NCBI GenBank assembly: GCA_963789955.1
Contig: CAWBMV010000001.1
Span: forward strand, 256,001 to 320,000
Length of the DNA stretch: 64,000 nucleotides
Origin: an uncultured Candidatus Rokubacteria bacterium
GTDB taxonomy: Bacteria; Methylomirabilota; Methylomirabilia; Rokubacteriales; CSP1-6
Direction: 5' to 3'
The notes below the pieces were generated by a model. It had not been told where the DNA came from. It made no database searches and saw only the letters and a list, made by a program, of their open reading frames with translations. Positions 14,501-18,949 of the stretch are shown in pieces; within the stretch, counting starts at the first letter, position 1, and each line of letters starts with the position of its first letter. A program made the translations under genes and the position numbers.

Positions 14501-15241
14501 CGAAGGGCGATGAACGCCATGTCGGTCCGGCAGACCTCGCGCGCCCCCTCGGCGATCCGCTGCAGCACGGTCGCGAGCTCGAGCGACGTGTTGACCGTGC
14601 GGACGACGTCGGCCAGGAGCTCGGACTCGCGCTGACGCCGCCCGGCCTCCTCGTAGAGTTGCGCGTTCTCGATGGCGATCGCGGCCTGGTCGGCCAGGAG
14701 TCCGGCGAGATTCTTTTCCTCGGCGGTGAAGTCGCCGCGGGAGCCGAACGCGACGATCAACGCGCCGACCGCGCGTTCGTGGTGGATCAACGGTAGCGCG
14801 ATGCAGGCGTGGAGCTCGCTCGTCTCGGCGAGCGCGCGGTGCCGCCAGCGCGGATCTTGCTGCACGTCGGCGAGGTACTCGGGCCGGCGCGAGAGCAGGA
14901 CGGCGCCGGCGATGCTGTTGTTGTCGCGGGGCACGGCTGTGGTGCGCACGATCCGGCCCGCGCGCTCGGGTCCGGCCCAGTAGCTGCCGCCTTCGCGCAG
15001 GGTCTCGGCGCCCTGATCGACCCAGACGTAGGCCATCTTCGCCTTCAAGAGCAGGGTGGCCGCCTCGGCGATGCCGCGGAACGCCGTGGCGCTGTCGGTC
15101 GCCGACGTCATGAGCCGCGTGAGGCGGCTGAGGGTGGTCAGGCGCTCGGCGCGCTCGTCCGCCTGACGCAAGCGTGCGGTGGTGGGGGTCGGGGGCCGTC
15201 CGCGCCCGCTTCGCGGGCTTGGGACGCTGCCGCTTATTCAA
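11524..15241 (-). CDS. Hybrid sensor histidine kinase (4x GAF, PAS, HisKA, HATPase_c, REC)
   Basis: Four GAF repeats ending in AAIAIENAQLY-like motifs, a PAS domain, AGGVAHDFNNLL, NLAVNARDAM, FFTTKGVGKGTGLGL and receiver LLLTDVVMP. The intact ORF starts at 15171; a TTG at 15241 overlapping the upstream stop needs one indel in a C-run. Confidence 0.92.
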
Positions 15242-16484
15242 TGGCGAAGTGCAATCGCGCGTGGGCCTTTCGGAGCGCTTGCTCGACCGTGTCCGGCATC
15301 TCGGCGCGGGCGAAGATGAACCCGAGATACTGCCAGCCCTCGGGCAGCGGCACCACGTCCTGTCCCGGGTGCATCGTGATGACGACTTCCTCGATCCCGT
15401 CGATCGCGGCGGCCTCGTCGGTGCCGTGGACCGCCGCGAGCCGGCCCGCGCGCGGGATCGGAATCATCATGACGCCGGCGGCACGTCGCTCGCGCTCGAG
15501 CGATGCGAGGGGACGTCCGAGCGCGTGGCAGAGGATGAGCTCCTCGAGACTCAGGCCCGTCCCGAAGGTCAGGGTGCGCGAGCACAGCCCACCGATCGAG
15601 CGCGCGGCGACCTCGAGCACGACGGGACCGCGCTCGTTCAGGCGGAGCTCGGCGTGGATCGGTCCCTCGGTGAGTCCGAGCGCGGAGCAGGCGTCGCGCG
15701 ATACCGCGGCGACGCGGGTCTGCATGGCCTCGGGGAGGCGCGACGGCGTCACGTAGATCGTCTCCTCGAAGAACGGGCCGTCGAGCGGATCGGGCTTGTC
15801 GAAGATCGCCAGCACGTGGAGCGTGCCGCCGACCAGCAACCCCTCGAGCGCGACCTCGACACCAGGGATGAACTCCTCGACGAGCAGCGCACGGCGCGCC
15901 TCGTCCGGCAAGGACACGTCGGTCATTTCGAGGATCGCCGAGATTCGACGGAAAGCCGCCACGAATTCTCGCGCGTCATTCGCGCGGATGACGCCGCGGC
16001 TGGCCGAGAGCGAGAGCGGCTTCAGGACGCAGGGGTACTCGATCTCGGCGGCGCGGGCGGCGGGGTCGTCCGCCAGGGTCACGAGGCGAAAGCGCGGGAC
16101 GGGCACGCCGGCCTCGGCGAGACAGCGGCGCATCGCGTGCTTGTCGCGCGCCGTGCTGACGGCCGGGAGCGAATTGGCCTTGAGACCAAGCCGTTGGCTG
16201 ATGGTGGCGGCGACGACCGTGGTGAGATCGTCCACCGGAACGACGGCATCGATCGGTCGTCGCTGCGCGAAGCGCGCGATCGTCTCGGCGCTCGCGCGAG
16301 GATCGGCGAAGTCGAGCGTGATGAGGGAGTCGGGGGCCAGGGGCTCGAAGGTGCTCGGCCGCTCGGAGGCACACACGAGCTCGACGCCCAGCCGGGTCGC
16401 GGCCTCGACGAAGGCCTCGGTGCGGTACGTCGTCGTCGGCAGGAGCAACAGTAAACGGCTTGCCGACGACGACACCGGCGTCAA
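15234..16484 (-). CDS. ATP-grasp domain protein
   Basis: RDKHAMR, YPCVLKPLSLSASRGVIRAND, LLVEEFIPGVEVALEG, DKPDPLDGPFFEETIYVTP, HAELR and EVAARSIGG. Confidence 0.92.
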   Translation of the reverse strand: MTPVSSSASRLLLLLPTTTYRTEAFVEAATRLGVELVCASERPSTFEPLAPDSLITLDFADPRASAETIARFAQRRPIDAVVPVDDLTTVVAATISQRLGLKANSLPAVSTARDKHAMRRCLAEAGVPVPRFRLVTLADDPAARAAEIEYPCVLKPLSLSASRGVIRANDAREFVAAFRRISAILEMTDVSLPDEARRALLVEEFIPGVEVALEGLLVGGTLHVLAIFDKPDPLDGPFFEETIYVTPSRLPEAMQTRVAAVSRDACSALGLTEGPIHAELRLNERGPVVLEVAARSIGGLCSRTLTFGTGLSLEELILCHALGRPLASLERERRAAGVMMIPIPRAGRLAAVHGTDEAAAIDGIEEVVITMHPGQDVVPLPEGWQYLGFIFARAEMPDTVEQALRKAHARLHFAIE

Positions 16485-16505: not shown

Positions 16506-16787
16506 CTAGGCTTTACCGGGCGTGTAGTAGGGGTTGCTCCCGGCGGAGTGGTCGGTCGCGTCGAGGACTTCGGCGATCTCGGGGATCTCTTCCTTGATCA
16601 GCCGCTCGATGCCCTGCTTGAGCGTGACATCCGCGGCGCCGCAGCCCTGACAGCCGCCACCCATCTGCAGGTACACGCGGTTGTCCTGCACGTCCACGAG
16701 CTCGACGAAACCGCCGTGGCCGGCCACCGCGGGGTTGATCATCGAATCGATCAACTCCTGAACCTTGGTCTTCAGATCATCGCTCAT
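16506..16787 (-). CDS. NifU-like (NfuA C-terminal) Fe-S carrier
   Basis: INPAVAGHGGFVEL and GGGCQGC (CxxC), TLKQGIE; SD GAGGTG upstream. Confidence 0.93.
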   Translation of the reverse strand: MSDDLKTKVQELIDSMINPAVAGHGGFVELVDVQDNRVYLQMGGGCQGCGAADVTLKQGIERLIKEEIPEIAEVLDATDHSAGSNPYYTPGKA

Positions 16788-16797
16788 GCAGCACCTC

Positions 16798-18225
16798 TCA
16801 AATCGATACTGTACCCGAGTTCGTGCTCAGGGCCAACTGGCCCTCCGTGGGCTCCGCTCAGCAAAACCACGGTTCGGTGAGGCGCGGCGGCCGCTTCCGC
16901 TTGGCGTCGGGCGCCGAAATCGGCCGCACGGGGAGGCCGGCGGTCCGGTCCGCCAGCTCCCGGACCCGCTGGAAGGTGACCGCGGCGTCCTCGCGGCGGT
17001 CGGCCGCGCCGGCCACGACGGCCGACACCTCCGCGTGTAGGGCCTCCATGCGTGGGTCGGGGTGGATCCAGCGGTGATAGAACTGTTCTTCGACGAGCTC
17101 GCCCAGGAACGGACGCATGGCGTCGCTCTCGAGCAGGAGCGATCCCGGCGGGATCAGAAGCCGAATCGAGAACTGGACGGGATCGACGGCGTCGACGAGC
17201 CCATGAGCTTCGACGAAGTCCAGTAGCTGTCGGTAGTCCTCGAGCGTCGTCCACGGTGTGAACGCGACCCACGTCGGGCGGAGCGCGATGCCGGCGTCGG
17301 CGGTGACCTGTACCGCCGCCTCGATGTCGGCGCGGGAATGACCCTTGTCGAGGTGCGCCAGGATCTCATCGTTCAGCGACTCGGCGGCCGACACGATGAA
17401 CGCGCATCCGAGCCGCGCGAGCTCCGGCAGCCGGTCGCGATGGCGCAGCAGGTGCTCGATTTTTGCCGTGAAGTCGAAGGTGAGCGTAGGAAACGCTTCG
17501 TGAAGCGCTCGCGCGACGGCCAGCGCGTGGCCGGGACCGTTCAGGAAGTCGGGATCCCCGAACGTGATGTGGGTCGCGCCGGCTTCGACCTGCTGACGGA
17601 TATCCGCGAGCAGCACCTCGACCGGCACCACGAAGAAACGACCGCCGTACACGGGCGGGATCGGACAGTGCCGGCACAGGTGCTTGCAACCTCGACTCGC
17701 TTCGACGTAGCCGACCAGCTCGAGCCCGCCGTCCCGCTCCAGATGCGCGTACTTCTTCAACGAGGGTAAGCTCGCGCGACTCGGCGCGGGAAAGTCGAGC
17801 TTCGCGAGGACGCGCAGAGGCTGGGGGGGCGCCGCCGGTGGGCTCGCGATCTCCAGCGTGCGGACCAGATCGATCAGCGCCCCTTCGGTCTCGCCGCTCA
17901 TGACCGAGTCGGCGATGCCGGCCAGCAGATGCTTCGCGTTGAGCGTCGCATAGAGCCCGCAGAACGCGATATGGCACGCAGGGTTCAAGGCTCGCACGCG
18001 GCGGGCGACGGTGACGCCGAGACGGAGGGCCGTGTGCATCGGCACCGAGATCGCGACGAGCTTCGCGCGCTTGACGCGCTCGGCATCGAAGGGCTCGACC
18101 GATACGTCCATCACCGCCGGCGCGTAGCCCGCGCGCTCGAGAAACGCCGCCGGCCACGCGACGGCCAGCGGCTGATGGCCGAGCTCGTAGCAGGCAACCA
18201 GCAAGATCGCGCCGCGCTCCTTCAT
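16798..18225 (-). CDS. CUAEP/CCAEP-tail radical SAM protein (B12-binding-like N-terminus), probable selenoprotein with UGA at 16858-16860 read as Sec
   Basis: Radical SAM motif EASRGCKHLCRHC and ITFGDPDF. The C-terminus reads RPPRLTEPWFC-TGA-AEPTEGQLALSTNSGTVSI-TGA, and the second stop abuts the NifU SD. Confidence 0.88.
16829..16857 (-). promoter_or_regulatory. Putative bacterial SECIS element
   Basis: Immediately 3' of the UGA: GCGGAGCCCACGG-AGGGCC-AGTT-GGCCCT. This is a 6-bp stem with a 4-nt loop, G at loop position 2, and the loop starting after 19 nt. Confidence 0.7.
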
Positions 18226-18274
18226 GCTCAAGAGTGTACTCCGCGCAGTGTGCAGCCGCAGAGCCCCGGCGGTG

Positions 18275-18390
18275 CGCGCCGCAGGTCGTCGCGGGGCTGG
18301 GGTCCCCGCCGACCGAGGCGCGCCTATGAACGGACCGCGCCGCAGGTCGTCGGGGGGCTGGGGTCCCCGCCGACCGAGGCGCGCCGCAGG
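18275..18390. repeat. Tandem 50-bp direct repeat (2 copies, period 61 bp)
   Basis: cgcgccgcaggtcgtcg(c/g)ggggctggggtccccgccgaccgaggcgcgcc at 18275-18324 and 18336-18385 with 1 mismatch, plus a partial third start (gcgccgcagg). Confidence 0.9.
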
Positions 18391-18448
18391 CATGGTTTGT
18401 GGTGGTATCGTGGGTGGCGCTGCTCAATTCCCAAGGAGGACTCACGCA

Positions 18449-18655
18449 ATGGCCGTCAAGATCACGACCCGGCCGAACGGCCCGTACCTGATCGAGGGTG
18501 AGTGCGAGCTTTACGATCCGACCGGGGCGCCGATCAATACGGCGGGCCAGGCGAGGATTGCGCTGTGCCGGTGCGGGGCGTCGACCAACAAGCCGATGTG
18601 CGACGGCACGCACAACAAGGTCGGCTTCCAGGCTTCGGAGGCCGCGAAGAAGTAG
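18449..18655 (+). CDS. CDGSH iron-sulfur domain protein
   Basis: NGPYLIEG...ALCRCGASTNKPMCDGTH; SD AAGGAGG. Confidence 0.93.
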   Translation: MAVKITTRPNGPYLIEGECELYDPTGAPINTAGQARIALCRCGASTNKPMCDGTHNKVGFQASEAAKK

Positions 18656-18661
18656 CCGAAC

Positions 18662-18949
18662 CTATTCGGGCTGGGTGTCGGGCTCGACGTCGGTCAGGAG
18701 CACCCAGTCGTCTGGCGGCTCGGGAGCAGGCCGCGTCTTCGGCGCCGAGGTGATGGTGCGGCCGCGGCTCGGCGAGAACCACTCCCACACGCCGCTCGGT
18801 GCGCCGGCGTCCTGGGCCTCGCCGACTTCGGGCCCGACAGCGCCGGACTCCGCGCGCTCGGTCTTACGCTGTCGCTTGGCTTCCTGCTTGGCCTTCTGGA
18901 TGTCGGCTCGACGTCGGCGCTCGAAGCCGTAGTGCCCCCCGCGACTCAC
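18662..18949 (-). CDS. Small hypothetical protein
   Basis: 95-aa ORF with coding-like GC3, a basic helical N-terminus and a WEWFSPSRG motif. Confidence 0.55.
   Translation of the reverse strand: MSRGGHYGFERRRRADIQKAKQEAKRQRKTERAESGAVGPEVGEAQDAGAPSGVWEWFSPSRGRTITSAPKTRPAPEPPDDWVLLTDVEPDTQPE

Follow-up and report, generated by a model that had tools for sequence, protein, structure and literature searches.

A CUAEP-tail radical SAM selenoprotein of Rokubacteria, its kinship with ArsL and its ATP-grasp ligase partner

The window analysed here, 64,000 nucleotides from an uncultured Candidatus Rokubacteria bacterium, holds a radical SAM gene whose first in-frame TGA almost certainly encodes selenocysteine; the insertion itself we infer from comparison of related genes. 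The gene is a further member of a named, functionally open family, the nearest characterised relative of which is ArsL, and its near-obligate partner is an ATP-grasp ligase. The closeness to ArsL and the near-constant presence of the ligase suggest that the two enzymes likely build a small peptide. The features of the locus are collected in Table 1.

Table 1. Features of the radical SAM locus, in positions of the window
Feature	Positions	Strand	Details
L-amino-acid-ligase-type ATP-grasp gene	15234..16484	-	single genome copy; invariant Cys301 in R-S-I-G-G-L-C loop; conserved partner
NifU/NfuA C-terminal-type Fe-S carrier gene	16506..16787	-	93 aa; ribosome site overlaps radical SAM stop; in 25/29 relatives' loci
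CUAEP-tail radical SAM selenoprotein gene	16798..18225	-	475 aa, Sec456; NF040546 664.3 bits, cut-off 500
Post-UGA tail, 19 codons	16801..16857	-	AEPTEGQLALSTNSGTVSI; P(+3) 100, E(+2) 98, Q(+7) 98 in 100 distinct tails
SECIS hairpin	16829..16844	-	6-bp stem, 4-nt loop starting at nt 20 past UGA, G at loop position 2
In-frame UGA, almost certainly read as selenocysteine	16858..16860	-	directly after Cys455; TGA 73, TGC/TGT 27 in 100 distinct tails
CDGSH Fe-S protein gene, divergent	18389..18655	+	15/29 relatives' loci, 13/80 wider loci

Recoding of the TGA codon

The radical SAM reading frame opens with an ATG at 18225 on the minus strand and runs for 455 codons to ...PWFC before the first TGA, at which the public gene calls stop. 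A preliminary description of this DNA held that the frame continues beyond this codon to a second TGA at the NifU ribosome-binding site, and all of these elements lie where it placed them: the second TGA (16800-16798) overlaps a GAGG site 10 nt 5' of the NifU-like ATG (16787). The same description read the first TGA as a selenocysteine codon, a claim upheld by alternation of TGA with Cys codons, conserved residues after the codon, a covarying hairpin and selenocysteine genes in the genome. The comparison took in the locus of the window, 29 loci of relatives and 80 of other genomes, 110 in total; the tail was located in 105, giving 100 distinct tails. Alignment past the UGA reveals the expected replacement of TGA by a Cys codon in 27 of these, with conservation of the following residues that extends, beyond the positions in Table 1, to A (93) and T (92).

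Bacterial SECIS elements follow a consensus of a hairpin shortly 3' of the UGA with a G early in the loop. The hairpin of the preliminary description was recovered at 16844-16829 with the geometry and position given there. Taken alone it lies within chance: compared with shuffled sequences its folding z lies between -0.70 and -1.87, and when the tail peptide was recoded synonymously 20000 times, 2477 versions (12%) carried an equally long stem at that place. The SECIS call is therefore established by comparison of genes rather than by the single hairpin. At least five of the six stem pairs are kept in the same register in 63 of 63 TGA genes versus 7 of 26 Cys genes, as counted after collapsing identical hairpin regions, while slid-register controls reach only 0-9 of 63. 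Changes on both sides of the stem are found at pair 2 (C-G 51, U-A 9), pair 3 (G-C 50, A-U 8) and pair 4 (G-C 54, A-U 7); as all tail and hairpin sequences are related by descent, these counts overstate independence. In 80 further metagenome loci, 73 of them with a locatable tail, the stem is kept in 59 of 61 TGA genes and 6 of 12 Cys genes. Cys forms thus sometimes keep a SECIS-type stem.

The selenocysteine machinery proposed as a check is present in the genome. The genes for tRNA-Sec, selA and selB adjoin one another, and selD, in which a UGA and a SECIS-like hairpin are likewise present, scores over its cut-off but is frameshifted near codon 41 in the assembly (G000 C6, about 164500). Judging from the relatives, this break is more probably an error of the assembly: selD occurs in 36 of 40, and 33 of these match the whole model. 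Across a chosen subset of 24 TGA genomes outside Rokubacteria, selA is found in 23, compared with 9 of 26 Cys genomes. An end of the protein at PWFC, whether by a genuine stop codon or by a sequencing error, is hence hardly credible. The hairpin that is not significant alone, the frameshifted selD and the truncated public gene calls speak for it; the TGA/Cys alternation, the conserved residues past the codon, the covarying stem, the distribution of selA and the selD genes of most relatives, which have no such break, speak against it. A one-off sequencing error is ruled out by the occurrence of TGA in 73 of 100 distinct tails from other assemblies.

Two unusual tails were met among the related loci. 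An Anaerolineae locus (L115:7354-7359) has TGA at both tail positions (W-Y-U-U-A-E-P) in a genome with selA, and is likely a double-selenocysteine form. In two Myxococcota Cys-Cys forms with a CCAAP tail (L105, L109) the SECIS position is still occupied by a hairpin of 11 bp, and no selA was found in either genome.

Family identity and kinship with ArsL

The protein scores over the cut-off of NF040546, the CUAEP/CCAEP-tail radical SAM (seleno)protein family, and reading through the TGA raises the score to 678.3 bits over a full-length match. Score, length and the CU-AEP tail are those of the family, and nothing distinguishes the present copy. Its N-terminal domain is Rossmann-like, and the CxxxCxxC motif at residues 180-187 has its cysteines (C180, C184, C187) invariant in 69 alignment rows. 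The closest named relatives come from Rokubacteria/Methylomirabilota, and 36 of 41 genomes of the host order carry the gene over the cut-off. The family is called uncharacterised, with its CU motif noted, in the passage that names it (bioRxiv 2022.07.06.499078); that passage mentions neither the ligase partner nor the Fe-S context. Searches of the literature for CUAEP, CCAEP and NF040546, with most subscription journals outside their coverage, returned no assigned function and no ligase link. The family name and the remark that its reaction is not established, both made in the preliminary description, are thus borne out. The recoding is correct but already catalogued.

The preliminary description passed over the kinship with ArsL, as it did the ligase partner. 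In the NCBIfam ranking the second model is ArsL (NF040542; 321.8 bits, below its cut-off of 450), and the third scores 50 bits. The two proteins share 34% identity over 408 aa (E 2e-80), the domain order and a vicinal Cys-Cys in the C-terminal tail, which aligns with C455-U456. CUAEP and ArsL proteins form sister groups with support 99 in a quick tree of 36 CUAEP, 4 ArsL and 4 long-branch outgroup proteins, for which long-branch warnings were raised. Among the best 150 profile matches the tail is of the E-x-W type of CUAEP proteins in 84, CCxxC as in ArsL in 6 and unrecognisable in 60, so that the ArsL tail is the only other recognisable type. The RCCLKC tail of ArsL has three cysteines, whereas the CUAEP tail offers two chalcogen ligands and lacks the third Cys. 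Motifs on the active-site side diverge (PMHTA, which includes the invariant His64, against PLFD; CxHC against CxYC; GDPDF against xDADF), and 64 alignment columns conserved among CUAEP proteins differ in ArsL. CUAEP proteins are also about 50 residues longer ahead of the tail, commonly occur in the Sec form and have no clear ars genes nearby.

The ArsL tail binds As(III) and is needed for the C-As product, with no extra cluster (bioRxiv 2024.02.01.577332; bioRxiv 2026.04.29.721666). ArsL turns methylarsenic directly into arsinothricin, best with the variant MCCA, according to a review (PMC13598754). By our own reading, the name of the variant stands for Cys-Cys-Ala. A two-thiol site suits methylarsenite.

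An AlphaFold model of the radical SAM protein, with Sec456 modelled as Cys, has a mean pLDDT of 94. The preliminary description spoke of a flexible tail; the model does not support this, being ordered through the Cys455-Sec456 pair, with means of 96 for residues 441-450, 85 for 451-460 and 77 for 461-470, and low only in the last five residues (44). The tail is predicted to dock on the protein body, which is compatible with motion in turnover. Of the three roles suggested earlier for the tail—redox arm, binding of a metal or metalloid, or binding of an auxiliary cluster—metalloid binding has the best precedent, in the matching tail of ArsL. The best solved folds are AprD4 (PDB 6FD2), OxsB, TsrM and MiaB (TM 0.55-0.67), which share the Rossmann-like domain and radical SAM barrel but only 13-20% identity; no ArsL entry is among the PDB matches listed.

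The ligase partner and the gene neighbourhood

The ligase gene lies two places downstream of the radical SAM gene. It adjoins its counterpart in 24 of 29 relatives' loci and, with varying order and strand, in 43/80 and 33/80 loci of the wider sets; of the 37 genomes in which no adjacent copy was seen, 35 have a ligase elsewhere. An even sample of 121 Acidobacteriota genomes, which includes the centre genome with both genes, contains 18 with both, 1 with the radical SAM gene only, 3 with the ligase only and 99 with neither. These figures comprise 19 radical SAM genes and 21 ligases of at least 46% identity, kept from 24 query matches after three at 29-32% were set aside. One unpublished ligase-only genome (G100) enters the ligase-only count and, as a non-CUAEP genome, the acetyltransferase and BshC counts given below. 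The ligase is accordingly a near-obligate partner of the CUAEP radical SAM protein. Pairwise identities of the two proteins correlate over 39 loci (rho 0.73), as shared ancestry alone would also produce.

The ligase finds its best PDB match in BL00235 (3VOT, E 4e-43) and has the three-domain LAL ATP-grasp architecture of BL00235 and BacD; it differs from both in falling under every NCBIfam cut-off and in its Cys, just past the conserved Arg loop and invariant in 42 of 42 sequences. BL00235 makes Met-Gly and Met-Met (PMC6920838). A complex prediction for a natural Cys-Cys radical SAM protein and its ligase gave 0.02 and 0.25 against a mark of 0.32, and was used neither for nor against an interaction. 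Of six matches to long 'fusion' proteins, four unite radical SAM and ATP-grasp parts, but the sequences look like adjacent genes joined by frameshifts and indicate adjacency only. An apparent in-frame fusion of the ligase with a CCAAP-tail radical SAM protein (P0263) is known from a single-member cluster.

Iron-sulfur genes are the other recurrent element of the neighbourhood. An Fe-S helper (Nfu, IscA, YggX or CDGSH) is found in 43/80 and 47/80 loci, 90 of 160 in all, and differs by lineage: Rokubacteria and Nitrospira have Nfu, and the metagenome set has YggX (46/80). Genes for SufB, SufS, SufU, ferredoxin and Rieske proteins recur around the loci, and aconitase flanks 16 of the 80 metagenome loci. 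The CDGSH gene is a lineage-level neighbour of uncertain membership in the system. A gene for a 95-aa protein at 18662-18949 (minus strand), with no Pfam or NCBIfam match, lies near the radical SAM gene in 15 of 29 relatives' loci. The intergenic region between the radical SAM and CDGSH genes (18263-18385) contains a GC-rich, REP-like hairpin repeat in two copies, with 94 genome matches of at least 40 nt. No sigma-70-like promoter was found. Of the 24 sequencing runs listed, 14 contain at least half of the sampled words, and six RNA runs reach 0.19-0.27. DUF169 neighbours the radical SAM gene in 18/80 and 4/80 loci, but the association disappears at the genome level (7 of 19 CUAEP genomes, 31 of 102 others).

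An ars gene neighbourhood like that of ArsL was not found. Queries of 160 loci, many of which end at contig ends, returned no ArsN1, ArsQ, ArsB, aquaporin, arsinothricin-type ArsM or MerB, one ArsM (a short generic methyltransferase match) and two weak ArsR matches. By contrast, all four ArsL-family plasmid loci opened, out of 36 such records, hold arsM or ArsR-type and aquaporin genes. An ATP-grasp gene stands beside three of the four, a likeness to the CUAEP loci; it belongs to another subfamily, and the one compared is only 23% identical to the present ligase, so the radical SAM/ligase pairing may have arisen independently of that of ArsL. Plasmids of Priestia, Alicyclobacillus and Pantoea (L123, L124, L125) contain RCCLKC-tail clusters with an ATP-grasp ligase, two of them with ArsM and an MFS transporter, and from their gene content may make arsinothricin peptides; a literature search, again without most subscription journals, found no paper linking arsinothricin and ATP-grasp. 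Two fusions are each known from one sequence: a CCAEP radical SAM protein joined to a MerB domain (P0137, a single-member cluster), of which the 160 loci hold no second case, and a GNAT-ArsM-ArsL triple fusion (P0245).

Canonical ArsM scores over its cut-off in 8 of 19 CUAEP genomes and 61 of 102 other Acidobacteriota genomes, and ArsN1a in 1 of 19; neither tracks the CUAEP gene. Weak ArsN1-like acetyltransferase matches under the cut-off occur in 8/19 CUAEP genomes and 12/102 others, a difference that genome size and kinship could bias. In 11 of the 121 genomes (L126-L136), 8 of the 19 CUAEP carriers and 3 of the 102 others, there is an ArsM-like methyltransferase gene with a TGA in frame (W-x-G-U-I-A-G-A-L). 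Scanned up to the TGA, these proteins reach the cut-off of none of the named ArsM selenoprotein models. The association is confounded by kinship and by Sec use, and the gene is absent from the present genome. On another contig the present genome has an arsR-arsM-aquaporin-arsN1 operon (G000 C17 63900-66300), the ArsN1 of which scores over the family A cut-off.

Possible chemistry of the pair

The reading that we favour, at a probability of roughly 0.35, is transfer of the ACP (aminocarboxypropyl) group of SAM to a metalloid held by the Cys-Sec pair, followed by ligation of the product into a dipeptide. The reduced cluster, perhaps supplied by the NifU-like protein, would cleave the C-gamma-S bond of SAM; the ACP group would pass to a soft atom held by Cys-Sec, here a trivalent metalloid; and the ligase would join the ACP product to a second amino acid. 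ArsL-like chemistry is suggested by the homology, the matching tail, the activity of ArsL on methylarsenic and the Met-using nearest ligase structure, Met itself being an ACP amino acid. The Sec-containing ArsM-like gene counts for a metalloid insofar as it is commoner in CUAEP genomes, and counts for less in being confounded and missing here. Also against the favoured reading stand the loci free of arsenic context, the distribution of ArsM and ArsN1a, the absent third tail Cys, the divergent active-site-side motifs and the tree with its four long-branch outgroups. Carriage by most genomes of the host order fits a housekeeping role better than the synthesis of an antibiotic.

The same two-enzyme pathway could act on sulfur or selenium, a possibility that we place only just behind the favoured one. 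The Cys-Sec pair would then bear a persulfide, a selenide or a sacrificial Fe-S cluster, the last restored by Nfu, much as NfuA rebuilds the sacrificial cluster of LipA, and a product of homocysteine or selenohomocysteine type would become a small thiol or selenol peptide serving iron or redox balance. The lineage-specific Fe-S helpers, the recurrent Suf, ferredoxin, Rieske and aconitase genes, the missing arsenic genes, and the ligase with its invariant Cys and Met-using relative all agree with sulfur or selenium, as does the lack of GshB and BshC matches over cut-off in the 87% complete genome. However, the Fe-S helpers could merely maintain an oxygen-sensitive cluster, YggX occurs in no more than 10 of the 19 CUAEP genomes and not in this one, and the ArsL tail was found to be free of any additional cluster (bioRxiv 2024.02.01.577332). 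Simple replacement of bacillithiol by the pair is unsupported, as 8 of the 19 CUAEP genomes keep BshC, compared with 67 of the 102 others (p 0.07). The acceptor is weighed near even because homology points to arsenic while the gene context points away from it, towards Fe-S upkeep.

Departures from ArsL-like chemistry are less probable still. The protein might be a canonical 5'-deoxyadenosyl-radical enzyme acting on the peptide of the ligase or another organic substrate, with Cys-Sec as a redox arm that gives or takes electrons; vicinal Cys-Sec redox pairs occur in thioredoxin reductase tails. The nearest solved fold, AprD4, is a canonical enzyme (TM 0.64), and the columns at which CUAEP proteins depart from ArsL would fit. 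We consider it improbable, as the sequence is much nearer to that of ArsL than to that of AprD4 and the tail is predicted to be docked; the literature consulted names no residues that decide which S-C bond breaks, so that the sequence alone favours neither chemistry. A cobalamin-dependent (class B) methyltransferase, which we consider very improbable, is suggested by a Pfam B12-binding domain match (34.4 bits, cut-off 32.1) and by the fold matches to OxsB and TsrM, but the NCBIfam models for class B enzymes all stay far below their cut-offs, at 50 bits or less. AprD4 and ArsL homologues are described in a review (PMC12931638) as having a Rossmann-like domain without binding cobalamin.

Setting the identity of the acceptor aside, a broader proposal comes a little short of even odds: an undescribed two-enzyme pathway in which the ACP radical meets arsenic, sulfur or selenium on a Sec-tipped tail, and the ligase then turns the product into a heteroatom dipeptide of a new kind. 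Such a pathway would span Rokubacteria, Nitrospira, Acidobacteria, Gemmatimonadota, Myxococcota, Planctomycetota and others. The recoding itself is unsurprising and changes the annotation only, gene callers truncating these proteins by 19 residues; it is the near-obligate ligase and the missing arsenic context that sharpen the question of function. An orphan family becomes a testable pair of radical SAM protein and ligase: ArsL provides the first assay, and expression of the natural Cys-Cys orthologues needs no Sec machinery. If the proposal is true, CUAEP proteins would be a second ACP-radical family with a canonical cluster motif, and one that uses selenocysteine to hold its substrate. Abundant soil bacteria would then make an arsenic-, sulfur- or selenium-containing peptide, with consequences for how arsenic and selenium are cycled and for the understanding of non-canonical SAM cleavage.
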